Assembly (NCBI GenBank): GCA_964637135.1
Contig: CAZWTX010000024.1
Location: 1-39,751, forward strand
DNA: 39,751 bases
Reading direction: 5' to 3'
Origin: an uncultured Methanospirillum sp.
GTDB lineage: Archaea; Halobacteriota; Methanomicrobia; Methanomicrobiales; Methanospirillaceae
Shown in pieces: positions 9,824 to 32,584 of the stretch (the stretch's first letter is position 1; each line of letters opens with the position of its first letter). The position numbers were made by a program, and so were the translations under genes. The notes under the pieces are model-generated. The model was not told where the DNA came from. It saw only the letters and a program-made list of their open reading frames with translations, and did no database searches.

Positions 9824-11359
9824 GTGAAAACGACAACCCGGGTCAAAAAGATCAACGGGCATGAGTATCTCTACGAAATCACGTATTATTACGATAAAGA
9901 AGCCCGGAGGACTCGCCAGAAAAGCAAGTACCTCGGGAAATATGTTGATGGGAAACCGGTCCGGGTCAGGGAGAAGGCAAAAAGTCCTGAACGGGTCTAT
10001 TCATACGGAGAACTCATCCCATATATCAATGCAATAAACCATCTCGGTCTCCAGCAGATTCTCTCGAATCATCTCACCGAACACGAAGTAAAACTCTTCC
10101 TGGCACTTTCACTGGCAGGACTGACCTGCCCGAATGCAATCCACAACCTGGGTGCATGGTATGATGGAACTGCCCTCTGCAGGATCAATCCCGGACTGAA
10201 AGTAACCTCCCAGACGGTAGTCAAACTTCTGAAAAAACTTGGTGAGGGCTCGCTTCCTCTTGAGGTCTGCAGATCCTGCATCGGGGAACTGACGTCAGGG
10301 GAGATGCGTACTTATGATCTTACCCTGCCCATCATGAACCAGGTGGATGACCAGGAGAGAAATGAACCGCAATTCAATGATCAGGTTCTCCTGTACTATG
10401 ACAGGGCAAAGAACATACCTGTTGCCTATATGCCCCACCTGAAGAACATGACAGCATCGGATCTGATCAAGAGTTCGACAGCTGGTATGCACCTGTTCAA
10501 CGGGAGGCATGTCACCCTCATCACCGGCAGGCAGTTCAAATCATCCATGAACCTATACAGCCTCGTCTTCAGCGGGGTCCCGTTTATTCTCCCGGTTAAT
10601 GCCGAACACGAGATTATCAGGGATGAATTAAAGCGCCACCGGACAGAACTCATGCATCCGAAGAACCTGAAGATATTCAGGGGAGAGACCCTGTTCGTCG
10701 TTCCGATAACCCTGACTGTCGAATCTGCACAGGTACATGCATACATCATCTATAGCCCACGGAAAGAAGAGGAGATCAGGGAAGAATATGCAGAAGACCT
10801 GGATCTCATTATCGAAAGCCTCCAACATGTGCCGGTTTACCGGTGGATGAACCCGGGCGAGGCAGTTTCAGATATTGCCGGCAGATATGAGCCATTTATC
10901 CAGTGGAAAGTGCAGGAAAACCGGATGGAGGTTGATCTGAAGCGCAAGGCTCTTGGAAAACATCTCAGGGAAGCCGGGCTCTCCGTCATCATCTCCTCGG
11001 GAGGAGAATTTGCCTGGGATAACTGTCTTGAATGGCTTGAAGAGCGGAAAAACGATGAAAAACTGCTCATGGACATCGTCCAGCGGTTCCATGTCTTCCC
11101 GCTCTCTGTTGATAGTGAAGCCATCCGTCACGGAGCACTCTGTATCGCGTTTATCTCCCTCATGATGGAACGATGGGCCGGAAACCACATGGCAACAAGC
11201 GGACTCCTCAACGTCTCCACACCACAGAAGATTATGCTGGAACTGAGCAAGATCAGGCTGATCGGGCTTGGCAATGACCGGACCATCATTACCGGCCTGA
11301 CCTCCAAGCAACAGGAGATCCTGAGCACACTCAAATGGCAGGCAGAGCTTCCCGCATAA
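9824..11359 (+). CDS. IS1634-family (IS4-like DDE) transposase homologue, probably catalytically inactive
   Basis: N-terminus KKINGHEYLYEITYYYDKE..RTRQKSKYLGK, YSYGE, YDLT, C-terminal GALCIAFISL and ELSKI..LTSKQQEIL all follow IS1634 architecture. The second catalytic Asp motif (DRG) reads GRQ. Confidence 0.75.
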   Translation: MKTTTRVKKINGHEYLYEITYYYDKEARRTRQKSKYLGKYVDGKPVRVREKAKSPERVYSYGELIPYINAINHLGLQQILSNHLTEHEVKLFLALSLAGLTCPNAIHNLGAWYDGTALCRINPGLKVTSQTVVKLLKKLGEGSLPLEVCRSCIGELTSGEMRTYDLTLPIMNQVDDQERNEPQFNDQVLLYYDRAKNIPVAYMPHLKNMTASDLIKSSTAGMHLFNGRHVTLITGRQFKSSMNLYSLVFSGVPFILPVNAEHEIIRDELKRHRTELMHPKNLKIFRGETLFVVPITLTVESAQVHAYIIYSPRKEEEIREEYAEDLDLIIESLQHVPVYRWMNPGEAVSDIAGRYEPFIQWKVQENRMEVDLKRKALGKHLREAGLSVIISSGGEFAWDNCLEWLEERKNDEKLLMDIVQRFHVFPLSVDSEAIRHGALCIAFISLMMERWAGNHMATSGLLNVSTPQKIMLELSKIRLIGLGNDRTIITGLTSKQQEILSTLKWQAELPA

Positions 11360-11441: not shown

Positions 11442-12341
11442 TTATTTACCACTATTTTCGGCAATTCTCTTCGAATTGTCGTTAATACGAACCTGGTTTT
11501 TCTCCACTCGTTCAACCAGCCCTTCCCGGATCAGATCATCGAGAATGCGCATGATCCGGTCAGGATCCGATCCCAGGTAATGTGAAATTTCTCCGGCAGG
11601 CAATGAATCCGTTTCCAGCAGAATTTTGAGAATTTTGCCCCGGATTTCCCGGTCTGACCCCTGGAACGGGGCCTGCCGGGAGTAATGGGAACTTCTCCGG
11701 TTCGGGTTTGCTACCGTTGTCGCAAGCCAGGTACCATAATCCATCAGGGCATAATACCATTCACGGGGGTTCCTCCAATCGAGCGCTGCACTGACAAGGG
11801 GGAGAAGATCATCATCATGAACGGTCGTCCCGGCCGGGAAGAAATGGTGGATAAACACGCGACGGATGTTTGTCTCAATAAAGACCGATTCATGGTTGAA
11901 TGCAAACGCCGCAATGGAACCGGCAGTAGCGGGGCCGATACCGGGCAGCTTGACCAGTTCTACAGGATCACGGGGGAGGACTCCACTATACTGCTCAATG
12001 ACAATCATTGCAATCTGCTGGAGATACCGGGCCCGGCGGTTATACCCGAGGCCCTGCCATGCACGGAGGACATCCCCGAATGGTGCGGAGGCAAGCGGGC
12101 CAAAACCGGGAAAACGGGCAACGAATGCGGGAAATTTTTCCATGACCCGGGGAACCTGCGTCTGCTGGAGCATCAGTTCAGATACGACAACCCGGTACGG
12201 GGAGATATCATCACGCCATGGCATCGGCCTGCGATGCTGTGCATAAAACGAGCGGATCATCTCCCTGAACGCAATGATATCTTCAGGATTCCCTGGGGTA
12301 AAGGGAGCATCCTCCGGGAAAAGCGGTTGCTGTCCTGACAT
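11442..12341 (-). CDS. mutY: MutY-like HhH-GPD adenine glycosylase (no Fe-S cluster motif)
   Basis: RRPMPWR, VVSELMLQQTQVPRV, WQGLGYNRRA, LPGIGPATA, ETNIRRV, ALMDYG. Start placed at ATG 12341. Confidence 0.87.
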   Translation of the reverse strand: MSGQQPLFPEDAPFTPGNPEDIIAFREMIRSFYAQHRRPMPWRDDISPYRVVVSELMLQQTQVPRVMEKFPAFVARFPGFGPLASAPFGDVLRAWQGLGYNRRARYLQQIAMIVIEQYSGVLPRDPVELVKLPGIGPATAGSIAAFAFNHESVFIETNIRRVFIHHFFPAGTTVHDDDLLPLVSAALDWRNPREWYYALMDYGTWLATTVANPNRRSSHYSRQAPFQGSDREIRGKILKILLETDSLPAGEISHYLGSDPDRIMRILDDLIREGLVERVEKNQVRINDNSKRIAENSGK

Positions 12342-12396
12342 CCGGCGGTACCGCATGGGAGAAAAAAGAAGATAGTCATACCGCAGATGATCGTGT

Positions 12397-13329
12397 ATGG
12401 CAACCCGGGTGCCGGCGTATGCATCATTGGGGCAGGGAGAACTCCACAGACGCGCTGATCTACTGAGGAGTCTCTCTTCACCCTGCCGGATTTGTCCCCG
12501 GAAATGCATGATCATGCGGGACAGGGGTGAGCGGGGATTCTGCCAGGCAGGCATCCTCCCCTGGATATCCTCGTTCGGTCCCCACCATGGGGAAGAGCGG
12601 GTCATTTCGGGGATACATGGTTCAGGAACGGTGTTCTTTACTGGGTGTTCCCTTGGGTGTATCTTCTGTCAGAACGATGAGATCAGTCATAGATGCCGCG
12701 GACAGGAGATCACCGGAGATGAACTTGCAGAGACCTTTCTCCACTTACAGAACCAGGGCTGCCATAATATCAACCTCGTCACGCCGACCCACCAGGTTGC
12801 CGCTATCATGGATGCCCTCTGCATGGCCGCTGAGCGGGGACTTACTCTTCCGATCGTCTATAACACAGGAGGGTATGACAACCCGGAAGTTCTCCGGCTC
12901 CTGGACGGGGTTATCGACATCTACATGCCAGATGCCAAGTTCTTCAGGGCGGAAACGGCAACTACCCTCGCAGGGGTGCCGGATTATCCGGGTATCATGC
13001 AGGAGGCGATCCGGGAGATGCACCGGCAGACCGGTGAACTCGTGATCAGGAACGGGATAGCAGTACACGGTCTTCTCATACGCCATCTTCTCATACCTGG
13101 CTTCCTTGAGGATTCAGCAGAGATCTGCAGATTCATCGCCAGGGAACTATCCCCGGAGACCTGGGTCCATCTCATGGACCAGTACCACCCTGCCGGGAGG
13201 GTTCTGGCAGACCTGGATTCTTCATCACCGCTAAAACGACGGATAACGATGGGGGAATGGAAAGAAGCATGTAGATCTGCATACCGGGCAGGTCTTCACC
13301 GGGTTGAGGGCTGTTCCGGGACAATCTGA
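12397..13329 (+). CDS. PflX-like radical SAM protein
   Basis: CSLGCIFCQN (CxxxCxxC), N-terminal CRICPRKC..GFC, HHGEE, GCHNINLVTPTH, DIYMPDAK, IRHL, MDQYHP. Confidence 0.87.
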   Translation: MATRVPAYASLGQGELHRRADLLRSLSSPCRICPRKCMIMRDRGERGFCQAGILPWISSFGPHHGEERVISGIHGSGTVFFTGCSLGCIFCQNDEISHRCRGQEITGDELAETFLHLQNQGCHNINLVTPTHQVAAIMDALCMAAERGLTLPIVYNTGGYDNPEVLRLLDGVIDIYMPDAKFFRAETATTLAGVPDYPGIMQEAIREMHRQTGELVIRNGIAVHGLLIRHLLIPGFLEDSAEICRFIARELSPETWVHLMDQYHPAGRVLADLDSSSPLKRRITMGEWKEACRSAYRAGLHRVEGCSGTI

Positions 13330-14690
13330 TCGGCAAGTATCCAGATACGCCCGATATATGCATCAAGACGAAATTTCCGCCGGAGACCGGCGTCATTCAT
13401 ATACCGGATCATCCCATACACCGGCTGTTCCTTCCAGGGGCGGTCATGCTTTCCAAAACACCAGGCAACCCCGGTATATCCGTTCGGATCGCGACCGTCA
13501 CATTGATACCGGTCATTCAGACTGACGGCAATCCCGTATCCCTCTTCAGGTGTTCTGCTCCACTCAAGGATCTTCTTTCCCCAGTACATCCTGAGGTACC
13601 CGTGCAGGTTCCCGGTGAGTTTCAATTCAGTCTGCATGGCATTCCAGGCCGGATCATGTGTACCGGCTTGATCAAACTCCGCGATGGAGTAGACGTACTC
13701 CCGCTCATCCTCCCCATGTGCAAGGAGGGTTTTTTTACACCAGGCAGGTAGTCCTTCAAACCGATCATAGTGTGGATTATAGTGACAGTAATTGAAGGCA
13801 AGTTCCCTCCTGACGATCAGTTGTTCCAGAAATGCATGACCTCCGGGTGACCGGGCAGCAATCACTTCCCTCGCGAGCCATGATGGAGATATGTGCCCGA
13901 AATGAAGATAAGGGCTCAATCCTGATATCGCCCGTGCTGCAGGGTCATTACGTGCACTCTCATATCGCTCAAGCCCGTTTGCCATGAATTCACGAAACCG
14001 GGACTCTGCCTCGGCTGTTCCCCCGTGAATGGTACATGCAGGCACGGTTTGGTCAAGAGACAGCGGGGCCAGTGCCTCATCGGGAAGATCAAGAGGAACC
14101 GCTCCCGGTGCATATCCAAGAGAGGAAACCAGTACACCCGGGATTTCCACCGGGGCCAGGAATTCCAAAATCTGGCCGGATATTTTCCGGCGGAAGGTTG
14201 CTGCAGACCACTCCTCTTTCGGCGAGGCCGACCTGATCGGAACAACCAGGTTGGATTCCACGGTTGCAACCGGGCAGGAGATCCGTGAAAAGACCTCCCG
14301 CTGCCATTCCCGTGACACGGTAAGGTAGGCCATATCAGTCACGAGAAGGATGGCATCCCCGGCATATGACGGGATGATGTCAACCGGACTTCCATATTCC
14401 ACGATCATCCTGATTCCCATCTCCTCAAGGGAGCGCGAACATTCGGCGATCCCCTCAACCAGAAACCGGTACGCACGGATCGTCGGCGACGGCCAGGAGC
14501 CGGTCAGGGAGAAAACAACAATAAGGGGCTTTTTTGCCTGGTTTGCCGCTGAAATCGCGTACGCCAGGGCATGATTTTCCCGGGTCCTGACTGCCGCCTG
14601 CATCCAGTACAGAACGTATGAGCCTGTCCCAGCCGAGCCCTCACGGGCAGAACCATCCCCGGCCCCTGTTATCCGTGCCGGATGGATCAT
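13296..14690 (-). CDS. phr: Class II CPD DNA photolyase
   Basis: VLYWMQAAVR..NHAL, SGLSPYLHFGHIS, FLEQLIVRRELA, THDPAWNA, HGYLRMYWGKKILEWS, DGRDPNGY, HDRPW. Confidence 0.95.
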   Translation of the reverse strand: MIHPARITGAGDGSAREGSAGTGSYVLYWMQAAVRTRENHALAYAISAANQAKKPLIVVFSLTGSWPSPTIRAYRFLVEGIAECSRSLEEMGIRMIVEYGSPVDIIPSYAGDAILLVTDMAYLTVSREWQREVFSRISCPVATVESNLVVPIRSASPKEEWSAATFRRKISGQILEFLAPVEIPGVLVSSLGYAPGAVPLDLPDEALAPLSLDQTVPACTIHGGTAEAESRFREFMANGLERYESARNDPAARAISGLSPYLHFGHISPSWLAREVIAARSPGGHAFLEQLIVRRELAFNYCHYNPHYDRFEGLPAWCKKTLLAHGEDEREYVYSIAEFDQAGTHDPAWNAMQTELKLTGNLHGYLRMYWGKKILEWSRTPEEGYGIAVSLNDRYQCDGRDPNGYTGVAWCFGKHDRPWKEQPVYGMIRYMNDAGLRRKFRLDAYIGRIWILADQIVPEQPSTR

Positions 14691-16507
14691 CAGGTTCTCC
14701 GGAAGAGTTTTTCGAGATGCTCACGGGAGAAGGTCAGTACCGTCGGCCTCCCGTGCGGGCAGGTGAATGGTTCAGCAGTGATAGCCAGCTGGTGTATCAA
14801 CTCTTCTGCCTGGTCAGCTGTCAGGTGAGTTCCTGCCTTAACCGCACCCCGGCAGGAGACCATCTTCATGACCATCTCACCAAGCCGTTCGGGATCATTC
14901 CCTGTCAGGGAAGCAGCGAGGATCTCCCTGACTGCAGCAGGATCCTCGTTCCTCCCGAGCACCACGGGAACACCCCTCACACACCAGGTCTCCTTCCCGA
15001 ACGGTTCTATCATGAATCCTTCACCGGAAAGAACGGGGAGAACTTCAGGCATCCGGGCAGTTTCCGAAGGGGAGAGAGAGAGTACCACCGGTACGATCAG
15101 TTCCTGGGTTCTGACTCCGGTCTCATGATCCTGTTTCAGCTGGTCATACCGTATCCGTTCATGGGCGGCATGCTGATCAACCAGGAGCAGGTCACCCCCT
15201 TCATTCTCGAAGACGAGATACATGGCAGCAATCTGGCCGACATAGGACAGTCCGTCCAGCCCTTCGTGGATTGACGGTACGGCCTGGTCACCCGTGAGGC
15301 GGGTCTGCTGGAGCTGCCTCGTGGTTGCCCGGTATCCGGAAAGCGTCGCTTCGCAGACCTGTCGTGATGTCGATGTAGTGAGGGCATACCTGCCGGGAGC
15401 GGGGACCCTGTCACCGGCAGGGCCTGATCCATGGTTATCGGTATAATCAGTGATTGTCCGGGTATGCATTTCATCAGTGGCCGGGAAAACCGTTTCATGT
15501 GCCCTCAGAGTCTCTCTGACCGCCTCGGTCACCGTATTGAATACCAGGTTTTCATCAGAGAACCGGACCTCACGTTTTGTCGGGTGAATATTGGCATCAA
15601 TCTTTGCCGGGTCAAGGCTGATACCGATCACCACTACAGGATACAGGGAAGCCGGAAGGAGGGTTCCATATCCCCTCCTGATCGCATACCCGATCCTCGC
15701 CGAGGTGATAACCCTCCCGTTCACCGACAGGAGTATCCGCTGTGGATTCTGCCGGGTAAGGGCTGGCCCGGAGATATACCCCCTCACCGTCACCCCTGAG
15801 GATGAATGATCCACCGCGAGCATCGATCCGGTCTCATCTCCATACAGGATCCGGATAACCCCGGCGAGATCAGACGAACCATGGGTGGAGAGTTTCTCCT
15901 GCCCGTTGAGGAGATAGCGAAAGGTGATGCCCGGATGCGTGAGAGAGAATATTTCAACCATCCTGATAAGGTGGGAGAGTTCGGTCTGGAGGCTCTTGAG
16001 GAATTTCCGCCTCGCTGGCGTGGTATGAAAGATATCGGCAACAGTGATCGCGGTCCCTTCCGGAGCACCGGTCTCTCCTTCTTCAAGGATCATCCCCCCG
16101 CTGATGACGATCCGGTACGCCGCCGGCTGATCTTCCGGCCGGGTGACCATCGTGACCTGTGCTATCGCGGCAATACTGGAAAGCGCCTCTCCCCTGAACC
16201 CGAGCGTCAGGCAATCGTCGAGATCCCCGACAGTCCGGATCTTACTTGTCGCATGAGGAAGAAAGGCCGTCGGGACCTGGCCGGCAGGGATACCAGACCC
16301 GTTATCGGTCACCCGTATCAGGTCGATCTCTTTCTTTCCTGTGGCGACCTCGATGGAAATCCGGTCAGCCCCGGCATCGATGGCATTTTCCACGAGTTCC
16401 TTGAGGATCGATGCAGGTCGTTCCACAACCTCTCCTGCGGCGATCTGGTTGACGGTTTCCTCGGCAAGAACCCTGATGAAGGAGTGTTCATCAGGCATTT
16501 CGCTCAC
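14690..16507 (-). CDS. mutL: DNA mismatch repair endonuclease MutL
   Basis: NQIAAGEVVERPAS, TLGFRGEAL, DANIHPTKREV, endonuclease motifs DQHAAHER, SCRGAVK and CPHGRP. Start may be 16498. Confidence 0.97.
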   Translation of the reverse strand: MSEMPDEHSFIRVLAEETVNQIAAGEVVERPASILKELVENAIDAGADRISIEVATGKKEIDLIRVTDNGSGIPAGQVPTAFLPHATSKIRTVGDLDDCLTLGFRGEALSSIAAIAQVTMVTRPEDQPAAYRIVISGGMILEEGETGAPEGTAITVADIFHTTPARRKFLKSLQTELSHLIRMVEIFSLTHPGITFRYLLNGQEKLSTHGSSDLAGVIRILYGDETGSMLAVDHSSSGVTVRGYISGPALTRQNPQRILLSVNGRVITSARIGYAIRRGYGTLLPASLYPVVVIGISLDPAKIDANIHPTKREVRFSDENLVFNTVTEAVRETLRAHETVFPATDEMHTRTITDYTDNHGSGPAGDRVPAPGRYALTTSTSRQVCEATLSGYRATTRQLQQTRLTGDQAVPSIHEGLDGLSYVGQIAAMYLVFENEGGDLLLVDQHAAHERIRYDQLKQDHETGVRTQELIVPVVLSLSPSETARMPEVLPVLSGEGFMIEPFGKETWCVRGVPVVLGRNEDPAAVREILAASLTGNDPERLGEMVMKMVSCRGAVKAGTHLTADQAEELIHQLAITAEPFTCPHGRPTVLTFSREHLEKLFRRT

Positions 16508-19154
16508 CAGCCCTTTTTTTGAGATCGCTCAGGATCGTAAGGGCCTGAAGTGGTGTCATCGCGTCGGTGTCCAGTGACGCTATCTCGGTAAGAAGGGGAT
16601 CAGGATCAGAGGAACCCGTACTGTCAAGAAGAATCATCTGGGTGTACCGTTTCACCCCCCCGCCGGGAGTCTCCTCACCGGTCAGGATCCGCTTCATCAG
16701 GTCACCGGCCCGTTTCACGACAGCATCAGGTACACCTGCCAGCCGTGCCACATGGATTCCGTAACTCCGGTCGGTTGCGCCTGGTACCAGCCTGCGAAGG
16801 AACACGACATCCCTGTCTGATTCACTGACCGCGAAATGGCAGTTTTTCACCCGTTTCAGTTCATTTTCTATCCCGACAATCTCATGAAAATGGGTAGCAA
16901 AAAGGGTACGCGGCCCTTTCGTCCGTTTTCCATGCAACTCCTCCAGGCAGGCTTTTGCAATGCAGTACCCGTCAAGGGTGCTGGTTCCACGGCCAATTTC
17001 GTCAAGAATAACCAGGCTCTGTTCGGTCGCGTGGTTCAGGATCGTCGCAAGCTCGGTCATCTCGACCATGAACGTGCTCTGCCCTGAGGCGAGGTCATCA
17101 AATGCCCCGACCCGGGTAAAGATGCGATCCACCACCCCGATCTTAGCGTAGGTAGCCGGTACAAAGGAACCCATCTGTGCCATCACGATGATCAGTGCCA
17201 CACTGCGCATGTACGTTGACTTACCGGCCATGTTGGCACCGGTGATGATCAGGATCTGGTCGTGGTCTGCGGATAGTTCGGCGTCGTTCGGGACAAAACC
17301 TCCCTGAACCGATGTTTCCACGACCGGGTGACGTCCTTCCCTGATGAGAATTCCGGGGCTTTTTGTCAGGACCGGCCTGACATATCCGTGTTTAAGAGCC
17401 ACCTCTGCAAGTGCGGCGTAGAGATCGATCTCCCCGATCGCACGCGCCGTCTCCTGAAGAACCGGCACGGAGGATTGAAGAGAGGTGAGCAGTTCAGAAT
17501 ACAGCTCTTCCTCAAGCGTCTGGAGTCGTTCATCAGCAGTGGCGATCTGGGATTCAACCTCCCGAAGGACAGGGATCGTGAACCGTTCCGCATTCGCGGT
17601 TGTCTGACGCCGCTCATATTCAGAGGGAACAAGTCCCAGGTTGGCCCGGGTGACCTCAATGTAGTAGCCGAAGACGGCATTATACCGGATCTTGAGCGAT
17701 TTTATCCCGGTCTTCTCCTTCTCTTTCTGCTCGAGATCTGCAATCCACTGCCTGCCGTCCCGGGCAACAACCCTGAGTTGATCGAGTTCGGCATGGTACC
17801 CTTCCCTGATGACCCCCCCTTTCCTGATAAGTGCCGGAGGATCTTCCACGATCGCCAGCCGGATCCGGGCTTCCAACGCATCGAGATCACCAATCATTTC
17901 CCCTGCAGCGAAGAGTTCTGCAGGGAGCATACACCCTGAAAAAAGATTCTTCTTGAGAATGGTGGCGGCATCGATCGCATCGCAGAGAGTGATGAGATCG
18001 CGGGGACTGGCATTACGGTAACTGATTCTCCCGGCGATACGCTCAAGATCCGGGAACCGGTGGAGAGCCGAGAGTACCTTCATCCGTATCTCCGCGGACC
18101 CGGAAAAGAAGGAGACGACATCAAGCCGCCCGTCTATCGCCGCCGGATCCCTGAGCGGGGCGGAAATTCGATGCCTGATGAGCCTTCTTCCCATAGGTGT
18201 CCTGGTGAGATCGAGTGTCCTGACCAGGGTACCCTCTTCGGAGCGATCCCTGATGTTCTGAACGATCTCCAGGTTACGGAGGGTTACCGCATCAAGAGCC
18301 ATCAGTTCTGATGTCGGGGATGAAAACCCGCTGATGTGGGTGAGGGGATCAAACTGGGTTTTCTGGGCATAGGAGAGGGCTGCACCTGCGGCACCGATCG
18401 CAACCGGTGCAAGGCCATCAAGACCGGTATCATCCCGGTTACCGCCAAACTGGGAGATAAGTAGGTTTTTCGCCTGAACGGCGTCGAAGGTCGCCGGATC
18501 CCCAGGCGATATCAGGGGGACCAGGCGGGAGAGATAGCCGGGAATATCCCCGGCCGACCCGTCCGGGACGACGCATTCCGCAGGCCTGAACCTGGCAACC
18601 GCCGACCGGATCGCCTCCGGCCCGTCAGTTACCGGGACTGCCATGACCTGGAAGTCCCCCGTTGAGATCTCAAGGAATGCAAGCCCGGCTGACGTTCCAT
18701 CCGGATCCAGGCAGGCTGCCATGAGGTACCGGGCCCCTTCCGTCGGAAGAAGGGCGGCATCTATCACCGTTCCGGGCGTCACCACCCTGATAACCTCCCT
18801 CTTCACGATTCCTTTCGCTTTCTTCGGGTCCTCAACCTGTTCACAGATAGCCACCTTGTATCCCTTCGTGATCATCCGGGAGAGGTACCCGTCAAGGGCA
18901 TGGTATGGAATACCGGCAAGGGGGATATCCTGTCCGTCAGGCATCCTGCCGCGGGAGGTCAGGGTGATGTCAAGTTCGCGTGCGCAAATCTCGGCATCTC
19001 CACAGAATGTCTCGTAGAAGTCTCCCATCCGGAAGAAGATGACGCAGTCCGGGTACTGACGCTTTGCATCATAGAACTGTTTCATTGCCGGGGTCACCCG
19101 TCCGGATTTCTCCGGTGCCATGGTAATCTCTTCCTGGGGGGGATCCTGACTCAT
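16491..19154 (-). CDS. mutS: DNA mismatch repair protein MutS
   Basis: TPAMKQF, FRMGDFYE, ITGANMAGKST, STFMVEM, DEIGRGTST, SYGIHVA. Start ATG 19154 or 19121. Confidence 0.97.
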   Translation of the reverse strand: MSQDPPQEEITMAPEKSGRVTPAMKQFYDAKRQYPDCVIFFRMGDFYETFCGDAEICARELDITLTSRGRMPDGQDIPLAGIPYHALDGYLSRMITKGYKVAICEQVEDPKKAKGIVKREVIRVVTPGTVIDAALLPTEGARYLMAACLDPDGTSAGLAFLEISTGDFQVMAVPVTDGPEAIRSAVARFRPAECVVPDGSAGDIPGYLSRLVPLISPGDPATFDAVQAKNLLISQFGGNRDDTGLDGLAPVAIGAAGAALSYAQKTQFDPLTHISGFSSPTSELMALDAVTLRNLEIVQNIRDRSEEGTLVRTLDLTRTPMGRRLIRHRISAPLRDPAAIDGRLDVVSFFSGSAEIRMKVLSALHRFPDLERIAGRISYRNASPRDLITLCDAIDAATILKKNLFSGCMLPAELFAAGEMIGDLDALEARIRLAIVEDPPALIRKGGVIREGYHAELDQLRVVARDGRQWIADLEQKEKEKTGIKSLKIRYNAVFGYYIEVTRANLGLVPSEYERRQTTANAERFTIPVLREVESQIATADERLQTLEEELYSELLTSLQSSVPVLQETARAIGEIDLYAALAEVALKHGYVRPVLTKSPGILIREGRHPVVETSVQGGFVPNDAELSADHDQILIITGANMAGKSTYMRSVALIIVMAQMGSFVPATYAKIGVVDRIFTRVGAFDDLASGQSTFMVEMTELATILNHATEQSLVILDEIGRGTSTLDGYCIAKACLEELHGKRTKGPRTLFATHFHEIVGIENELKRVKNCHFAVSESDRDVVFLRRLVPGATDRSYGIHVARLAGVPDAVVKRAGDLMKRILTGEETPGGGVKRYTQMILLDSTGSSDPDPLLTEIASLDTDAMTPLQALTILSDLKKRAGERNA

Positions 19155-19261
19155 GATACCAAGGAGGTTGATCACGACTCCCAAAAAAAGGTCTGACCTG
19201 CCTGTTGCAACGCAGAACGACCGGCAGGATTTCACTTAAACCAAAGAATATCCGCGGATTT

Positions 19262-25301: not shown

Positions 25302-26234
25302 ATGGTACTCGAAGAGGAGACTGTATTCCAGGATGTCGAACAGGCGCGTATGTTCGCCTCGCTTCTGAAAAAACTGGGAGTATCCGCGCACGTGAGAACA
25401 AAAAAGGTACTGAACTCAGAGGTGGTACTCACCGGAGAGAGTGCCGCCCTGATCTCATTATGCAGGGATATCTGTTCCCTGCTCACCGCGGATAACATGA
25501 CCGATCAGAAAGAACTCCTCGCCCTTGAGGAGGCTATTGAAAAACTGAACCTGCAGCAGCAGATTCTCGTTGATACCTTCCGGGAATATGATATCGGGGA
25601 TCCGGTTGGCTCATCAGTACTTGACCTCATCACCGGGACCGAATCCCTGATCGAAGGTGCTGACGATGAGTCCGCGAAAGAACTCCTGGATGATATCTAT
25701 CGCGTCCGCCTGCTCCATCTGAACGATCTCGTACAATACGAGGAGGATGCGATTATCCTCACGGGTAAAATTGATCCTGAAAAGGCATTACTCACCATTC
25801 ATGCCGGGGAGATCCCCCTGATCCCTGATGAGATGCTCACCTCGTATAAGATCAGAACATCACTCAGTGCTTCTGACTGGGAGAGTGCAACGGTATCCAT
25901 CGGCCCCGAGATCGTACTTCTCGAAGACCTCACCCCGATAACGGCATTTTTCACCGAGTACCCACAGGAAGAGGATGTCGATCTCCTCTCCCGGATACAG
26001 GTAAAACAGGTGATCGTATCAGAGATCCTCAGGTTGATCGAAGAAGAAGATCATATCACCACAGAAAAAATCTCCATCCATTTTGGGGAATGTGAGATAC
26101 CACCTCCTGATAACACCGGAGACCTCTTTGTCGTTACACACCTCTCCCCGGCATTCATCAGGGATACAATCGATGACCTCAGGCGATCCGGCCTGCTCAG
26201 GGGAAAGGATAACCGGCTCAGGCTCGCTGCCTGA
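25302..26234 (+). CDS. Hypothetical acidic protein with a possible C-terminal winged helix
   Basis: 310-aa ORF filling the space between neighbours; C-terminus FIRDTIDDLRRSGLLRGKDNRLRL. Confidence 0.75.
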   Translation: MVLEEETVFQDVEQARMFASLLKKLGVSAHVRTKKVLNSEVVLTGESAALISLCRDICSLLTADNMTDQKELLALEEAIEKLNLQQQILVDTFREYDIGDPVGSSVLDLITGTESLIEGADDESAKELLDDIYRVRLLHLNDLVQYEEDAIILTGKIDPEKALLTIHAGEIPLIPDEMLTSYKIRTSLSASDWESATVSIGPEIVLLEDLTPITAFFTEYPQEEDVDLLSRIQVKQVIVSEILRLIEEEDHITTEKISIHFGECEIPPPDNTGDLFVVTHLSPAFIRDTIDDLRRSGLLRGKDNRLRLAA

Positions 26235-26831
26235 TCAGACCATCCCGGTCTTTTCTTTTCCCTTCCATTCACCGGAGAGCAGCAACCCGGGGTTGAAGAG
26301 TGCGGTCAGCCTGAAGACGATGTCATCAGCCTTGTCATCATTGGTAATAGTCTGAATCAGATCCTCAAAATCGATCCATACGACATCATCAGTGCCGGCC
26401 ATATACTTCCTGCCGCTCTGACTGAGAAAGCCATCGAGAGATGTTTTGAAGAATCCAATCATGAAATTCGTCTGAATGTGGTTGTCTGACTGGTCAAGAA
26501 ACGTAATTGCATCCCCGGGAACTTCGATGATCCCATACACATCATCCACGACCATTCCGAACCGGGTTCCATCCTTCCCGTGAGGGAGAAAGACAATAAC
26601 CCGCTTTTTTTCAGAATCGCGGTCAAGCGGTATGATCCTCCTGATGTCTATCACCTTCACCACGTCAGAGCGAATCGTGATGACACCAGGAATGTAATCC
26701 GGGGCCCCCGGGAGGGGAATTTTAACCTGATCACTCACGACCTCACGGATGAATGAGACCTTTGATGCATAAATGCCGCTTCCAAGCGAGAAAAGCAGTA
26801 ACCCATGGATATGGTTCTCTTCAGGTGACAT
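26235..26831 (-). CDS. cheW: CheW-like coupling protein
   Basis: LLFSLGSGIYA, IREVV, LPGAPDYIPGVITIRSDVVKVID, FGMVVDDVYGI. Start placed at ATG 26831. Confidence 0.85.
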   Translation of the reverse strand: MSPEENHIHGLLLFSLGSGIYASKVSFIREVVSDQVKIPLPGAPDYIPGVITIRSDVVKVIDIRRIIPLDRDSEKKRVIVFLPHGKDGTRFGMVVDDVYGIIEVPGDAITFLDQSDNHIQTNFMIGFFKTSLDGFLSQSGRKYMAGTDDVVWIDFEDLIQTITNDDKADDIVFRLTALFNPGLLLSGEWKGKEKTGMV

Positions 26832-26993
26832 CGTCTTCACTCTCCCCATCCGATCTGCACCGAATATCCAGCCCCCCGGCTGATACCTATTGTATGCCAT
26901 CCATAAGGATAGGACTTATGGATCTCCCTCATCCTGACCGAAGATATGAAATGGTTCGGCATGAGAGATGAAAGAAGGAAGAACCACCGAATC

Positions 26994-27542
26994 ATGGAAG
27001 CGTTCCTCACCCTTGTCGAGATAGGTCTTGGCCGGGATCATTACCTCATCGACGGGGATATCATTGAAAAATTCATCCCGCCACTGGAGGCGAAGGTAGT
27101 CTATGATGCTCCTTCATACATCGAAGGGATATCTCCCTGGAAAGAGGAGATGATTCCGTCGATCAACGTCGCCCCGCTGCTTGGGATGGAACGGGCGGAT
27201 ACTGGAAAGAAACGAACGCTGATCATCAGGAAAGGCATGATAGCCGAGACTGCCATGGCAGTTTCTGTAGATGAGGTGTACATGGTACGACGGATCCCGC
27301 CAAAAGAGATCATGCCGGCTGATATTTCAGCATGCAAAGGGATCGAAAACTATGTGAAAGGGCTGATCAGGCAGGTTTTCCGCGAGGATGGGAAAGAAGA
27401 AGAACTCGTACTGCTCTATCTGAACCTTCATAAGATGCTCCAGGAACTGCTCAGGGGAAAGATCGCCCGACCTGCACCGGATTTTTACATATGGCGCTGG
27501 GATGACAACCAGAGCGGGAAGGAGAACGGATCCTTCTTGTGA
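26994..27542 (+). CDS. Divergent CheW-like protein
   Basis: DAPSYIEGI..EEMIPSINVAPLLG, AVSVDEVYMV, YVKGLI, LLYLNL. Confidence 0.75.
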   Translation: MEAFLTLVEIGLGRDHYLIDGDIIEKFIPPLEAKVVYDAPSYIEGISPWKEEMIPSINVAPLLGMERADTGKKRTLIIRKGMIAETAMAVSVDEVYMVRRIPPKEIMPADISACKGIENYVKGLIRQVFREDGKEEELVLLYLNLHKMLQELLRGKIARPAPDFYIWRWDDNQSGKENGSFL

Positions 27543-27590: not shown

Positions 27591-28844
27591 ATGACATGGA
27601 ATCCGGTCAGCCTTGATGACTGGCTTTGCAGGCAGAAAGGAGCCTTATCCGATGTCTCCGCAGCGACACAGGAGATTATCGGCACTGTTGCTTCGGGAGG
27701 AGACCAGGCATTATTCGACCTCTGCATGCGTTTTGACCATATCAGGCCGGATTCACTCAGGGTAACCGAAGAAGAAGTCGACGCGGCATATGACGGGATC
27801 GATCCCGAAGTAGTAGAAGCGCTCATCGAGGCATATGCGCGGATAAGCAGTTTTCATGAACTCCAGAAACGGGAAGAACTCTGGCTGACCGAAGCGGGAC
27901 CCGGGATCACGCTGGGTGTCAGGACAACCCCCCTCTCACGGATTGGGATCTACGTTCCCGGCGGCAGGGCCACCTATCCCTCGACGGTTCTCATGTGTGC
28001 CGTTCCGGCAGCGGTGGCCGGTGTTGCCGAGATGATCTGCTGCACCCCCCCTCCTGTCAGCCCGCTTACCCTGATAGCCCTGGATATTGCTGGTATCACG
28101 GAGATCTACCAGATAGGAGGGGCACAGGCAATTGCCGCAATGGCACTTGGTACCGAGACAATCCGGCCGGTTGAGAAGATCGTCGGGCCGGGAAATGCAT
28201 TTGTCACGACTGCAAAGATGCTGCTTCGCGACCGGGTTGAGATTGATTTCCCGGCAGGGCCGTCTGAGATCGCTATCATTGCCGATCACACCGCACGGCC
28301 TGACTTTATCGCGGCAGATATCCTCGCCCAGTCAGAGCATGATCCGAATGCTGCATCTCTGCTCATCACCACTGATGCCGCCATCGCGGATAATGTCGGG
28401 CAATGGATCATCCGTCTCATGGAGAACGCTCCGCGAAAGGAGATCATCGCACAATCACTGGAACGATCGGGGTATCTCATCGTTCCGGACCTCGTGGAAG
28501 CAGTGGAAGCATCAGACCGTATCGCGCCTGAACACCTCTCCATCCAGGTTGCCGATCCGCTCGGGCTTCTGACAAGGATCCATCATGCCGGATCCATCTT
28601 CGTCGGTCCGTATGCCCCGGTTGCCTGTGGGGATTATGCATCCGGGACAAACCACGTTCTTCCGACTGCCGGAAACGCCCGCCTCTACTCTGGTCTGAAT
28701 GTTGCCCATTTCACCAAGACCTCGACCGTTCAAATCGTAACCCGGGAGGGGCTGAACGAGATCGGCGATATTGTTGAGCGGATTGCTGATGCCGAAGGGC
28801 TGCATGCCCACGCAGAATCTGTCAGAATCCGGCGGGGGAACTGA
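27591..28844 (+). CDS. hisD: Histidinol dehydrogenase
   Basis: GIYVPGG, GGAQAIAAMA, GPGNAFV, IDFPAGPSE, QSEHD, APEHL, GDYASGTNHVLPT. Confidence 0.97.
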   Translation: MTWNPVSLDDWLCRQKGALSDVSAATQEIIGTVASGGDQALFDLCMRFDHIRPDSLRVTEEEVDAAYDGIDPEVVEALIEAYARISSFHELQKREELWLTEAGPGITLGVRTTPLSRIGIYVPGGRATYPSTVLMCAVPAAVAGVAEMICCTPPPVSPLTLIALDIAGITEIYQIGGAQAIAAMALGTETIRPVEKIVGPGNAFVTTAKMLLRDRVEIDFPAGPSEIAIIADHTARPDFIAADILAQSEHDPNAASLLITTDAAIADNVGQWIIRLMENAPRKEIIAQSLERSGYLIVPDLVEAVEASDRIAPEHLSIQVADPLGLLTRIHHAGSIFVGPYAPVACGDYASGTNHVLPTAGNARLYSGLNVAHFTKTSTVQIVTREGLNEIGDIVERIADAEGLHAHAESVRIRRGN

Positions 28845-28849
28845 TCCGG

Positions 28850-30121
28850 TCACCAGGATATCCTGACAACAGCCCGCTCTTCTTCGGTAAGCCCGGCCTG
28901 TTCTGGGGCAGGCCGGTACCCGTCCATGGGATCAAAATCAGGATATATATCAGCACGATCGAGGATATCAACGAATTCCCGGAGAAATACCCGGGGTATA
29001 ACATCGATTCTTCCGCCAAATGCCTCGCAGACCCGTGAGACCATTATCCTGATAAAGCGGTGAGATATCCGGTCCCGGTCAATCTCCCCATATGCCTGAA
29101 CATACACCTCAATAACCCGTAGGGCCACTTCTTCAAGCCGCTTTTCGTCAAAAGGACGCAACGGGATTTGTATCTGCCGTGGATTCGGAAACCGGTTATC
29201 TACCGGCTGGTTCCCGATCCGATCATACAGGGGCTGGACCATCCGCATCCCCCGCTGGCCATCATACAGCATCGGGGTTCCGGCACAGATCAGGAACCAG
29301 TGGGGAAGCTGGCCGGAATCGACAGCATCTATGAGCCTGACTAAATTCTGAAATCCTTTCTCCCTGAGATTACGCGGAAAAGTCTGGGTCACTTCAAGTT
29401 CGTCAATCGCTACTGCGACTCCTGAGTAGCCTGCCCCGCATACTATCACAGGCAGCAGGCGGAACAGGGAGAGAATTATGGATTCATCGATATCCCCTCT
29501 GATCCCAGCCTTCTGCCTGATATCGCGGCCGATGTTCGGATCCCCGGAAAGCCATCCGATGGCGGCCTGTGCAGTCCCGAAATCACCCTCTGCAGAAGCC
29601 CTGGCATAGGTCCGGATCACGGCAGCAACTCCCGGGCTCATCCGGCTTATCTCTTCAAGGGCTCGTTCGGTCTCGCGAAACCGGCCTTTCTCCCCGTATT
29701 CGGCAGATTCTCCGGAACGCTCCTCGAGGGTATACAACCAGGCATCAAGTACTGAACGGAAGGCGTTTTCTTCTCCTCCTGCTGTAAGTGAATGCACGAT
29801 GCTGCTGTAAATGGTTCGCAGTTTGTGGAGCGGGGTTGTCGGCGAAAGGGAGATTCGTGCCGTGACAAACCCCTCCCTGCGGGCAATTTCAAGTGCTCGG
29901 GCAATCAGAAAGGTCTTTCCGCTCCCGTATTCTCCCCGGATGAACCTGATGTCTGCACCGCTCTTTCTGACAAGCCGGAGTTGATCGGTGATCGTCTCCT
30001 CCTCGGCATCCAGTCCGACCGCGAACCGCCATAATCCCGATGCCGGCACGGTTCCCCTCCGCAGGGCATTGATGATGCCGATACTCTCCAGGGAAGCAGG
30101 ATCTGATCGTTCAGCCGGCAT
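28850..30121 (-). CDS. BrxD/DUF2791-family P-loop ATPase
   Basis: IINALRRGTVP..GL..FAVG, Walker A GEYGSGKT, AAIGWLSG, Walker B AIDELE, AGTP, PRVFLREFVDILD. Start placed at ATG 30121. Confidence 0.87.
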   Translation of the reverse strand: MPAERSDPASLESIGIINALRRGTVPASGLWRFAVGLDAEEETITDQLRLVRKSGADIRFIRGEYGSGKTFLIARALEIARREGFVTARISLSPTTPLHKLRTIYSSIVHSLTAGGEENAFRSVLDAWLYTLEERSGESAEYGEKGRFRETERALEEISRMSPGVAAVIRTYARASAEGDFGTAQAAIGWLSGDPNIGRDIRQKAGIRGDIDESIILSLFRLLPVIVCGAGYSGVAVAIDELEVTQTFPRNLREKGFQNLVRLIDAVDSGQLPHWFLICAGTPMLYDGQRGMRMVQPLYDRIGNQPVDNRFPNPRQIQIPLRPFDEKRLEEVALRVIEVYVQAYGEIDRDRISHRFIRIMVSRVCEAFGGRIDVIPRVFLREFVDILDRADIYPDFDPMDGYRPAPEQAGLTEEERAVVRISW

Positions 30122-31877
30122 ACCGGTACACCTCCCCTGACTCACCAAATCCATCCTTCTCGATGAGCCTGATCCCCTGATCAGAAAGTTTCCTGATGAT
30201 GCGGTTGATCAGGCCGGCAACACGGTTTGTTCCGGCAACCTTGCGCAGTTCAGTTTCAGAGCAGATCTGATGACGGGCAAGGTAGAGGAGAACTGATTCC
30301 TCGACGGGATCAAGTCCTGACGGGATCAGGTTCTCCATGGATCTCCGGGGAAGGCTCTCTCCCGGGGAGGTACTTCGTCGTACCGGGAGAGAAAAACAGG
30401 ATTTTTTACACAGCATCAGTTCATGAAAGAGCGCATCACCAACTTCACCCACATCGGCAGGAAGCACAGAGAGCGCTTCAATGCAGAGTAACTCACCAGC
30501 CTGTCCGGATCCGGTCTCCCTGGCATGAACCGAGAGCGAGAGAAGGATTCGTCCATAATACGTCCGCCCCCGGGTCGAGAGAAGATGAGACATGGACCGG
30601 AAGCGTTCTGCAAGCAGCTCAAGGATATCCGGATCTGGCTGATGATCCAGGATCATCCCGGTGATCATCTCGAGATCACGTATCTTTCTCACGGTTCGGA
30701 TCATGTACATCAGGATCTTCCGGTACTCATGGATATCCCCCTTTTTCCGGAGGTATCCTGCATACGCCGAACCCCCGAGGATAAGATCAGAACGGAACGC
30801 CCGGAAGTAGAGATCCCGTGCCATAGTATCATCTCCGTTATCAGCAGCGATATCTGCTGCGGAGACGAGGGATACCGTATCGGCTGCCATCACCAGCTGG
30901 TTCAGCAGCAGCCGCCAGCCTTCTCCCGGGGAGCGCATCTCCATGATACGCGAATAGAGAGAGGTGATACCGGCATGGATATCCCAGTCTGTCGGGGAGG
31001 ATTGTTCAAAGAGCACGCGCCTGCAGAGGGATTCTGCCCGTTCATGATCTCCTGCTTCAAAGCAGGCGACTGCACCGTTCCAGATATCCCGGGGATCAGC
31101 AGTGTCAGAAAGGTAGGAGTGATACACACCGGCTGCTTCCTGGTACCGCCCTGCCGACAGGAGAAAGAAGAGAAATTCACCTGCCACAGGGGGTTTTTTC
31201 AGCCGGACCGGATCGGCAAGCAGGAATCGTTCCGCTGCACCAGGATCGGTTCTAGAGAGAGACCGGATGTACCAGACCAGTATTTTGTCATCTGAAAACC
31301 CCGTATCCTGAACAATGGAGAGAACCTCTTCATCTCTTCCCAGTGCATTGAGTGCATGAAGATACTGTGGCAGGGATCCGGCCGGGATGGATTCCGGAGT
31401 AAATAGTCCGGCTGCTTCTGTATATCTGCCCGATCTGACCAGGAGATCGAGGAGCAGTGCCACATCCTGCGGATCCTGAAATCGTTCACAGAGGAGAGCA
31501 ATGACCGGGTAAGCACCCTCATCGTCACCTTCTGCCACCAGGTACGCTGCATACCGTCGGAGTGCCGCCAGTCCGTTTGGATCAAGACGAACCGCCTCGC
31601 AGAACTCTGCACGGGCAGATTCATCCCCTTTCTCCTCGAGTACACGTCCAAGATACAGGCATACCTCGGCAGAATCAGGAAGAATCCGCCTCAGGTCGCG
31701 GAGACAGACTTCTGCCTCGTCTATCCGGGAGACAGATATCAGGCAGAGCGCTTCAAGAACACGAAGGGAGGAATCCCTCACCGGGCCGGCTTTCTTTATT
31801 AGATCAAGACAAGCGTCATACGAACCCTGCTCAAACAACCGGAATGCCGGCTTGTGAAGTTCATCCCCATCTGTCAT
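30111..31877 (-). CDS. TPR-repeat protein with a C-terminal winged-helix-like domain
   Basis: TPR-like helices (LYLGRVLEEKG..EAVRLDP; GRYTEAA; GRYQEAA); C-terminus VLLYLARHQICSETELRKVAGTNRVAGLINRIIRKL..GEVYRY. Confidence 0.82.
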   Translation of the reverse strand: MTDGDELHKPAFRLFEQGSYDACLDLIKKAGPVRDSSLRVLEALCLISVSRIDEAEVCLRDLRRILPDSAEVCLYLGRVLEEKGDESARAEFCEAVRLDPNGLAALRRYAAYLVAEGDDEGAYPVIALLCERFQDPQDVALLLDLLVRSGRYTEAAGLFTPESIPAGSLPQYLHALNALGRDEEVLSIVQDTGFSDDKILVWYIRSLSRTDPGAAERFLLADPVRLKKPPVAGEFLFFLLSAGRYQEAAGVYHSYLSDTADPRDIWNGAVACFEAGDHERAESLCRRVLFEQSSPTDWDIHAGITSLYSRIMEMRSPGEGWRLLLNQLVMAADTVSLVSAADIAADNGDDTMARDLYFRAFRSDLILGGSAYAGYLRKKGDIHEYRKILMYMIRTVRKIRDLEMITGMILDHQPDPDILELLAERFRSMSHLLSTRGRTYYGRILLSLSVHARETGSGQAGELLCIEALSVLPADVGEVGDALFHELMLCKKSCFSLPVRRSTSPGESLPRRSMENLIPSGLDPVEESVLLYLARHQICSETELRKVAGTNRVAGLINRIIRKLSDQGIRLIEKDGFGESGEVYRYAG

Positions 31878-31888
31878 GACAATGGTAC

Positions 31889-32584
31889 CTATAGCAATCC
31901 AAACCTGAGTTTCAGAAGCGTCGTTAACATGGATGCCGTATCACCGGCCCTGAGTCGGGAGTCATCGGTATCATTCCAGATCACCGATCCTTCGCAAATC
32001 CGGTACCCGGCCTGTCTCAGGCGCCAGAGCAGTTCGACATCAAATTCAAACGCCCGGGTCCGCATCCGGGGGAGCACGGCTTCAATGGCATCTCTTCGAA
32101 AGACCTTCGCACCGCACTGGGTATCGGCATATGGCAGGCGGAAGAGGATCCTGACGATGAGGTTGAATCCCCTGCTCTGGATGCGGCGTAAAAAAGGCTG
32201 GGACTTCTCGATTGCCGAGGAAGCAAGGTACCGTGAACCGATAACCCCGTCCCATCCTTCTTCCATCTTCCGGATGAGGCCAAGGAGGGCAGAATATTCT
32301 GTTGAATTATCTGCATCGATGAAACAGACAACCGGGGAAGTTGCTGCCCTGAATCCGGTTAACACTCCTCCTCCCTTTCCCATGCGGGAACTGAACCTGA
32401 GACAGCGGATGGTCAAATCAGGATGTTCTGATGCAAACCGGTCGATGATATCAGCCGTCTGATCGGTTCCATCACAGACGAAGATGAATTCTGCCCCGGT
32501 ATCGGAGAGGGTATCAAGCAGTCGGCCGATCCGGCCGGCTTCATTGTAGGCCGGAATAACAATGCTACGGAGAAGTTGAACCAT
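31889..32584 (-). CDS. GT2 glycosyltransferase (dolichyl-phosphate glucosyl/mannosyltransferase-like)
   Basis: SIVIPAYNE, GKGGGV, IDAD, VIGSR, DTQCGAK, FDVELL. Confidence 0.9.
   Translation of the reverse strand: MVQLLRSIVIPAYNEAGRIGRLLDTLSDTGAEFIFVCDGTDQTADIIDRFASEHPDLTIRCLRFSSRMGKGGGVLTGFRAATSPVVCFIDADNSTEYSALLGLIRKMEEGWDGVIGSRYLASSAIEKSQPFLRRIQSRGFNLIVRILFRLPYADTQCGAKVFRRDAIEAVLPRMRTRAFEFDVELLWRLRQAGYRICEGSVIWNDTDDSRLRAGDTASMLTTLLKLRFGLL

Follow-up and report, generated by a model that had tools for sequence, protein, structure and literature searches.

We analyzed a 39,751-nt stretch of DNA (the window) from contig CAZWTX010000024.1 of assembly GCA_964637135.1, which derives from an uncultured Methanospirillum sp. 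(genome G000). Two overlapping genes on its minus strand encode a tetratricopeptide repeat (TPR) protein that ends in a winged helix and an ATPase of the DUF2791/BrxD type, related to ATPases of bacteriophage exclusion (BREX) systems. A first-pass annotation, made from the sequence alone, had read this pair as a minimal two-gene defense or signalling module. The 588-aa TPR open reading frame (ORF), the 423-aa ATPase that it overlaps, and the intact Walker motifs were all borne out (Table 1). The two-gene reading was not, since a third gene on another contig, encoding a BrxHI/SngC-type helicase, accompanies the pair in every one of the 146 genomes that carry it.

Table 1. The TPR-brxD gene pair, its parts, and its immediate neighbors, in positions of the window
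Feature	Position	Strand	Basis
TPR-solenoid protein with C-terminal winged helix, 588 aa; putative adaptor in the place of PglZ	30111..31877	-	ORF, Pfam, AlphaFold2 model
N-terminal alpha-solenoid, residues 1-498 (helical 4-494), fast-evolving	30384..31877	-	Model, Foldseek, conservation
Three-stranded winged helix, residues ~515-588; homolog of the PglZ C terminus of a BREX-2-like lineage; predicted BrxD-docking surface 550-566 and 577-582	30114..30335	-	Profiles, predicted complex
BrxD-type (DUF2791/PF10923) AAA+ ATPase, 423 aa, Walker A/B intact, single copy	28850..30121	-	Pfam, PADLOC, NCBIfam
Overlap of the two genes (11 nt), with a ribosome-binding site (GGAGGTG) 7 nt upstream of the ATPase start codon	30111..30135	-	Read from sequence
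Family 2 glycosyltransferase (GT2), neighbor by position, outside the module (retained where the pair is deleted)	31889..32584	-	Pfam, deletion loci
hisD, converging neighbor, outside the module	27591..28844	+	Pfam, deletion loci

The ATPase matched the Pfam family PF10923 (E = 2e-108), the NCBIfam BrxD model NF033438 (379.3 bits, cut-off 350), and the PADLOC models for BrxD (381 bits) and SngB (121.6 bits), in agreement with its first assignment to DUF2791/BrxD. Residues G63, G66, G68, K69, and T70 of the Walker A motif (GEYGSGKT, 63-70) and D240 and E241 of the Walker B motif (AVAIDE, 236-241) are invariant in 48 orthologs, and a genome search found this to be the single DUF2791 gene in G000. 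In a tree of BrxD proteins (all our trees are quick searches on selected rows, with Shimodaira-Hasegawa approximate likelihood ratio test (SH-aLRT) support only), the methanogen sequences formed one clade (100) within the BrxD clade (100) of types 2 and 6, with SngB outside. True SngB scored 543 bits as SngB versus 167 as BrxD. On these scores, the tree position, and the missing TerB domains, we rejected an identity with Shango. Among 1.84 billion representatives, the best non-methanogen match to the BrxD profile was P0137 (474 bits), which belongs to the NERD-BrxD lineage; a sequence search of solved structures returned no BrxD relative. By source name, homologs of the ATPase come from Methanospirillum, Methanoregula, and Methanomicrobiales, and those of the TPR protein from Methanospirillum. 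The orthologs are publicly annotated as 'BREX system ATP-binding protein BrxD', though most of these genomes lack PglZ. Many JGI entries label the BrxD ortholog 'adenosylhomocysteinase', an apparent mis-annotation.

The TPR protein matched Pfam TPR models weakly (E ~1e-9) and nothing in the defense libraries. Its AlphaFold2 model (mean predicted local distance difference test (pLDDT) score 84.4) consists of a solenoid (residues 4-494), a disordered linker (496-515), and a winged helix built from helices 524-535, 541-548, and 553-566 and strands 574-576 and 583-587, with pLDDT only ~50 at 571-588. When the whole model was used as the query, Foldseek recovered generic TPR proteins only, with the TPR domain of O-GlcNAc transferase (1w3b, E = 9e-10) among the best. 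Mean column conservation over residues 1-495 is 0.49.

Searched against 15,169 ORFs, including the whole G000 set, a winged-helix profile had only nine non-self matches at E ≤ 0.01, all of them metagenome ORFs (E = 1.4e-7 to 1.8e-16). All nine directly precede a NERD-fused brxD, and a helicase gene then follows in the six loci that extend far enough. The five ORFs tested are all PglZ proteins nearest the BREX-2 model (188-205 bits, cut-off 200), and the genes upstream of those PglZ were PglY/BrxC in three of three cases. Aligned with one such PglZ using hhalign, the full-length TPR profile matched over its last 71 columns only (probability 96.3, 39% identity). SAP-domain DUF2791 proteins carry a related winged helix in the same chain, immediately ahead of the ATPase (profile probability 94-95 over 72 columns). 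This match scored 41.6 versus a column-shuffle maximum of 18.5, and eight SAP-DUF2791 proteins were the top eight matches among 165 proteins.

Other C termini gave weaker signals. Those of BREX-6 PglZ aligned over 31-32 columns that cover two helices only (hhalign 87-89%, E = 2-4e-6). The comparison of hidden Markov model (HMM) with sequence was not significant (E = 0.09-10), and the BREX-6 PglZ C-terminal HMM, run over 12,474 G000 ORFs, placed the window TPR protein eighth (E = 6.7). The C terminus of classic actinobacterial and proteobacterial type 2 PglZ and the TerB_C domain of SngA each had a probability below 1, using shallow profiles of six and four sequences, respectively. The nearest Atlas clusters, TerB_C (0.84 and 0.82) and PglZ_C (0.75), all fell below the 0.9 line and are leads only. 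The N-terminal region of P0175, which looked alike by eye, scored only 15.6% and was rejected as a relative.

Type 2 PglZ ends in a three-stranded winged helix-turn-helix, according to the accessible part of PMC12839542. Judging from our profile comparisons, the winged helix of the TPR protein is homologous to the PglZ C terminus of one BREX lineage, that with PglY, PglZ, BrxD, and a helicase. The domain had previously been likened to the C termini of both kinds of upstream partner; the likeness held for PglZ of this lineage, while one to TerB_C went undetected by the shallow profiles. The accompanying idea that the TPRs were swapped in fits these data, because the alignment with PglZ is confined to the last 71 columns, as would be expected if the solenoid stands in for the PglZ body.

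The winged helix is also predicted to bind BrxD. The modeled complex of BrxD residues 11-423 with winged-helix residues 510-588 had an interaction prediction score from aligned errors (ipSAE) of 0.76 (0.60, 0.79, and 0.76 in the individual runs), while the best of three controls scored 0.00. Our mark for this score was reached by 116 of 157 solved complexes and by 2 of 215 mismatched pairs, counts that hold roughly, since we used our own alignments. The runs shared at least 82% of contacts, with partner pLDDT of at least 81. On the winged-helix side, the predicted interface includes the invariant residues R552, N558, G581, and E582; on the BrxD side, it comprises residues 114-133 and 176-185, including invariant A120, D126, E133, and Q185. 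Conservation in the winged helix is 0.70 at the interface versus 0.60 elsewhere. Binding would occur through the recognition helix and, as this helix is buried in the predicted complex, the winged helix may be a docking module more than a reader of DNA. These models agree with the proposal, made from the sequence, that the domain docks the ATPase.

The first-pass annotation had also suggested a search for an unlinked BrxHI or Lhr helicase, and G000 encodes one. Scanning six of the ten DEAD-domain matches in the genome identified a 693-aa helicase (G000:C31:28525-30606, minus strand), directly behind a thioredoxin gene, with BrxHI as its best PADLOC model (417 bits; SngC, 299 bits). Its Walker A lysine, DExH residues, and motif VI residues do not vary among 13 orthologs. 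By scores and by tree, this protein is separate from the 908-aa Lhr of G000, although Lhr structures (5v9x and 7lhl) are its closest solved relatives. Methanogen helicases form one clade (99) apart from Lhr, in which the Methanospirillum members are long-branched. The 908-aa Lhr and other superfamily 2 helicases were rejected as partners, as they had lower BrxHI scores and genomes that lack the pair encode Lhr as well. Thioredoxin precedes the helicase in 16 of 18 loci. The helicase was unlinked to the pair in all loci examined, with the nearest case 16 kb away (G057); in single-contig genomes, the two loci lie tens of kb to >1 Mb apart. The accessible part of PMC12839542 describes brxD and brxHI as a tight dyad, and a helicase was indeed next door in the bacterial BrxD loci that we inspected, including eight of nine plasmid loci (by profile). 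No such linkage exists here: 56 pair loci hold no helicase, and the G000 copies are on different contigs.

We determined the distribution of the three genes in 218 Methanomicrobiales genomes, each at least 90% complete, from six families (f1-f6). A BrxD ortholog was present in 146 (145 over the cut-off, plus G062 at 303 bits), and the TPR ortholog was present in the same 146. Five weaker ATPase matches (G027, G069, G115, G124, and G162) were set aside as other types. The helicase was whole in 145 genomes, 143 of which carry the pair, and the remaining three pair genomes hold it in pieces. None of the three genes was found in 70 genomes, and the helicase occurs alone in two drafts (G162 and G185, 90-91% complete). 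The pair is present in 109 of 115, 26 of 26, and 10 of 10 genomes of three families and in 0 of 8, 0 of 36, and 0 of 22 genomes of the others. Beyond the order, a draw of 401 genomes of the phylum contained only two with a match at E ≤ 1e-55. Both scored below the cut-off, and in both another gene lies upstream of the ATPase and a helicase lies next to it. The conserved linkage assumed for the TPR and ATPase genes was confirmed, as the genes are adjacent, with the TPR gene directly upstream, in 56 of 56 pair loci, mostly between pyrG/GT2 and hisD. Among viral contigs, 22 pattern matches included no relative, and no viral copy was found.

The unlinked loci have been lost together. Four Methanospirillum genomes (G004, G009, G013, and G019) lack all three genes; in these, GT2 abuts hisD, thioredoxin abuts a subtilase gene, and no gene remnant was detected in the deletion loci at E ≤ 1e-4. 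The joint deletions fall on two separate branches, G004 alone and G009 with G013 and G019 (support 96-100). In an RNA polymerase tree, f3 (trio present) is basal, f4 (absent) is sister to f6 (present; 96), and f2 and f5 (absent) group with f1 (present; 89). This topology implies that the trio was present in the ancestor of the order and was followed by some four to five joint losses, including those in f4 and in f2/f5. Both loci are under purifying selection: across six genome pairs, the ratio of nonsynonymous to synonymous substitution rates (dN/dS) was 0.03-0.14 for BrxD, 0.13-0.22 for the helicase, and 0.13-0.23 for the TPR protein.

Two genes downstream of brxD were considered as fourth members and rejected. 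One, an OB+HD nuclease-like gene, occurs in only 15 of 57 loci, all in f3 and f6 (L045:10441-11403 and 14 similar ORFs), and has no match in G000. The other encodes a 177-aa protein with no Pfam hit (L238:9404-9937 and 15 similar ORFs in f1), is present in only 16 of 57 loci, and was assessed from these loci, with no genome-wide search made. The neighbors of brxD on this side thus differ by lineage.

The immediate setting in the window is housekeeping, as first described. An ORF and Pfam scan placed hisD on one side and GT2, a PaaI-like gene, and pyrG on the other. GT2 sits 11 nt upstream of the TPR gene on the same strand, and the GC content of the pair (55%) equals that of the flanks. Among the 37 window ORFs scanned, there was no helicase, PglX, PglZ, BrxC, or TerB gene, again as stated before, and no PglW kinase, for which no genome-wide search was made. 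The gene overlap and the GGAGGTG site suggest that translation of the ATPase would be coupled to that of the TPR gene. The start codon of the 423-aa ATPase is the ATG at 30121. Translation from a second, in-frame ATG (30154) would yield 434 aa; orthologs favor the shorter form. A promoter scan found 3 sites versus 2.9 expected, using a bacterial model on an archaeal host. Elsewhere in the window, two divergently transcribed stand-alone CheW genes beside hisD (26235-27542) are conserved in Methanospirillum. A DNA-repair cluster ~10 kb from the pair (11442-19235, minus strand) encodes MutS, MutL, a photolyase, and an HhH-GPD glycosylase that ends in a winged helix. Two ORFs of 511 aa (9824-11359) and 310 aa (25302-26234) have no Pfam match, and the 310-aa ORF is kept in 10 Methanospirillum loci.

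We lean, if only slightly, toward a model in which the three proteins form one machine that derives from the PglZ-BrxD-BrxHI arm of BREX and loads or activates the helicase, most likely for upkeep of host DNA. In this machine, the PglZ catalytic body would have been exchanged for the TPR solenoid, and the winged helix is predicted to dock on BrxD. The solenoid may recognize a protein signal, for instance a replication or transcription complex that has stalled. BrxD would then use ATP to load or switch on the Lhr-like helicase, a role for BrxD that the accessible part of PMC12839542 proposes, and the delivered helicase could remodel forks, R-loops, or bound proteins. The module has no accompanying nuclease or methyltransferase. 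Host upkeep is favored because the module is single-copy, vertically inherited, split between two loci, flanked by housekeeping genes, and free of nucleases and methyltransferases, unlike the defense genes of the same genomes. A broader history is plausible, though we hold it somewhat more tentatively. An ancestor of the Methanomicrobiales may have captured a bacterial PglZ-BrxD-BrxHI arm, swapped the nuclease body for TPRs, and made the result a core but split chromosomal helicase loader. The winged helix could then be a general plug through which the DUF2791 ATPases of BREX-2, BREX-6, and related systems are coupled to interchangeable sensors (PglZ, TPR, SAP arrays, and perhaps TerB).

Several points weigh against a BREX-derived loader for host DNA. 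The characterized relatives, BREX-2/Pgl and Shango, all act against viruses, and Shango needs no more than a scaffold, an ATPase, and a helicase, according to the accessible text of its description (bioRxiv 10.1101/2022.11.11.516204). Sisterhood of methanogen BrxD and the NERD-BrxD lineage has an SH-aLRT support of only 51, and the clade of BREX-linked helicases (support 95.8) does not include the methanogen helicases, which are not separated from SngC, so that the trees leave the donor without a name. Within BrxD, conservation of the predicted interface hardly exceeds that of the remaining residues (0.73 versus 0.70). The module is dispensable, as the 70 genomes without it show. Since related genomes are not independent, the real evidence for co-occurrence is the four to five joint losses rather than 218 points, and the order-wide helicase and TPR searches scored only five to six candidates per genome. 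Finally, the TPR protein and the helicase change much faster than core genes: identity to five congeners is 33-43% for the TPR protein and 38-51% for the helicase, compared with 81-84% for pyrG.

A different reading of the same three proteins is a core, chromosomally fixed antiviral system that resembles Shango. The TPR protein would sense a viral protein, its winged helix would activate BrxD, and the helicase would either stop the replication of viral DNA or bring in a host nuclease. A scaffold with a C-terminal domain, a DUF2791 ATPase, and an Lhr-like helicase mirror the Shango layout; the TPR protein and helicase diverge fast, the losses are repeated, and the OB+HD nuclease-like gene adjoins the pair in 15 f3/f6 loci. 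We nonetheless consider this reading rather doubtful. The genes are single-copy and vertically inherited and have a fixed place among housekeeping genes in three families (145 of 151 other genomes), while true defense genes are patchy in the same genomes (PglZ is found in 23 of 218) and complete Shango systems occupy separate loci (L046-L049). The lack of linkage to the helicase, down to a nearest distance of 16 kb, also speaks against it, as do dN/dS values of at most 0.23 and the absence from G000 of a match to the OB+HD gene. The choice offered at first, between an antiviral module with an effector in trans and a domesticated one, leans toward domestication, which is better supported than a stand-alone defense module; rather than in a defense island, the locus is fixed among housekeeping genes.

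Two further explanations have very little probability. According to one, the pair is a self-sufficient sensor-ATPase module, and the helicase merely shares its phylogenetic pattern. The constant adjacency of the pair, the distant helicase, and the two drafts with a helicase and no pair would be accounted for; however, those exceptions are 90-91% complete drafts, set against a helicase in 146 of 146 pair genomes. As the unlinked loci were lost jointly at least twice in one genus and are both missing from three whole families, and the inspected bacterial BrxD loci have an adjacent helicase, this explanation is already largely refuted. It is just as improbable that the genes serve as accessories to a complete BREX system encoded at another locus, or that they are remnants in decay. 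PglZ, with its phosphatase/nuclease domain, does occur in 8 of the 146 trio genomes, and the Methanospirillum helicases have long branches. However, the other 138 have no PglZ match, which refutes the idea for most genomes, and invariant catalytic motifs and low dN/dS values speak against decay. Genome searches of G000 (97.7% complete) did not find a complete BREX at another locus; they gave no PglZ, no BrxC match, and a best BREX-2 PglX score of 74.9 bits versus a cut-off of 400.

If the helicase-loader model is true, the trio is a clear case of an immune sub-module that has almost joined the core gene set of a major methanogen order. It would also be a BREX arm reduced to three proteins with a specific, mutable predicted interface (R552, G555, and N558 on BrxD 114-133), making the loader idea directly testable in vitro, and the natural clean-deletion strains within one genus allow comparison. 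No title or abstract opening in the literature that we searched describes the module; most subscription papers lay outside this scope, and the supplement of PMC12839542 may list such loci.

Among known systems, the trio is most like type 2 BREX/Pgl. BrxD exceeds the NCBIfam cut-off, and the gene upstream of brxD ends in the same winged helix. BrxHI is the best PADLOC model for the helicase, which the trees place clearly with neither the BREX-linked helicases nor SngC. The closest form is the PglY-PglZ-NERD/BrxD-helicase lineage of metagenome loci L350-L357, L360, and L361, which are BREX-2-like and in which BrxD has an N-terminal NERD nuclease domain. The trio differs in having a TPR solenoid for the PglZ catalytic domain, in its unlinked helicase, and in being archaeal, fixed, and vertically inherited. 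In G000, no PglZ, PglY/BrxC, or PglX over the cut-off stands beside it, and the window has no PglW. As far as its accessible part goes, PMC12839542 found no archaeal type 2 BREX, classes BrxD as an ORC/Cdc6-class ATPase without DNA-binding domains, and terms its role uncharacterized, with helicase loading offered as a possibility only. Type 6 BREX of cyanobacteria, myxobacteria, and planctomycetes shares the order PglZ-brxD-helicase and a PglZ C terminus (NF033443) that resembles the winged helix, but BREX-6 PglZ and BrxC are absent beside the brxD of the trio.

As for the archaeal Lhr proteins (aLhr1/aLhr2), Lhr structures are the best solved relatives of the trio helicase, which is nevertheless distinct from the 908-aa Lhr of its genome and travels with BrxD. 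The accessible part of PMC8301817 states that aLhr2 is missing from Methanomicrobiales and that a few archaea have acquired Lhr-like proteins from bacteria; the missing repair helicase may hint at an upkeep role, which we treat as a lead and not as evidence.

The SAP-winged helix-DUF2791 fusions resemble the trio in having a related winged helix before the ATPase, and a helicase gene lies next door in 34 of 38 loci; they differ in being a single chain, with SAP domains for TPRs and a separate ATPase clade. These proteins of ~960 aa, followed by an Lhr-like helicase, are found at L310-L349 (P0171, P0177, P0181, P0182, P0187, P0191, P0196, and P0207). We found no family name for them, and the fusion and helicase are a candidate minimal defense system related to BREX and Shango.

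Other arrangements of DUF2791-like genes were also seen. In archaea outside the order, L137 and L138 (G235 and G245; f12) consist of a 258-aa gene, a DUF2791 ATPase, and an adjacent helicase, and those of L138 adjoin an apparent type I restriction system (by eye). At L140 (G009:C5) and L139 (G027:C1), two or three divergent DUF2791-like ATPases in a row are followed by a helicase; G009 is one of the Methanospirillum genomes that have lost the trio. L147, on the Deinococcus plasmid NZ_CP034187, carries two copies of a set made up of an uncharacterized gene, a brxD-like gene, a helicase gene, and an HNH gene, and no PglZ. An extra LRV-repeat protein there shares its C-terminal sequence with the gene immediately upstream of brxD, a sign that sensors may have been swapped.

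Shango, which protects against phages 10-100-fold according to the accessible text of bioRxiv 10.1101/2022.11.11.516204, likewise has three parts without a dedicated nuclease, with an ATPase of the same superfamily and a helicase of the Lhr-like group. Four relatives (G031, G001, G020, and G008) carry complete Shango loci (TerB-domain protein, ATPase, and helicase; L046-L049) as separate extra loci. L046 lies among SbcCD-like and AddAB-like genes, and the SngA of L048 has an N-terminal TPR. Unlike Shango, the trio has a BrxD-type ATPase, a TPR protein without TerB domains, and a helicase outside the operon. The TPR protein had no PADLOC or TerB match, and no TerB_N was detected in G000, in a search in which the control genomes were also silent. 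The trio would work as the distal arm of BREX-2 does and has the layout of Shango, and it is a member of neither.

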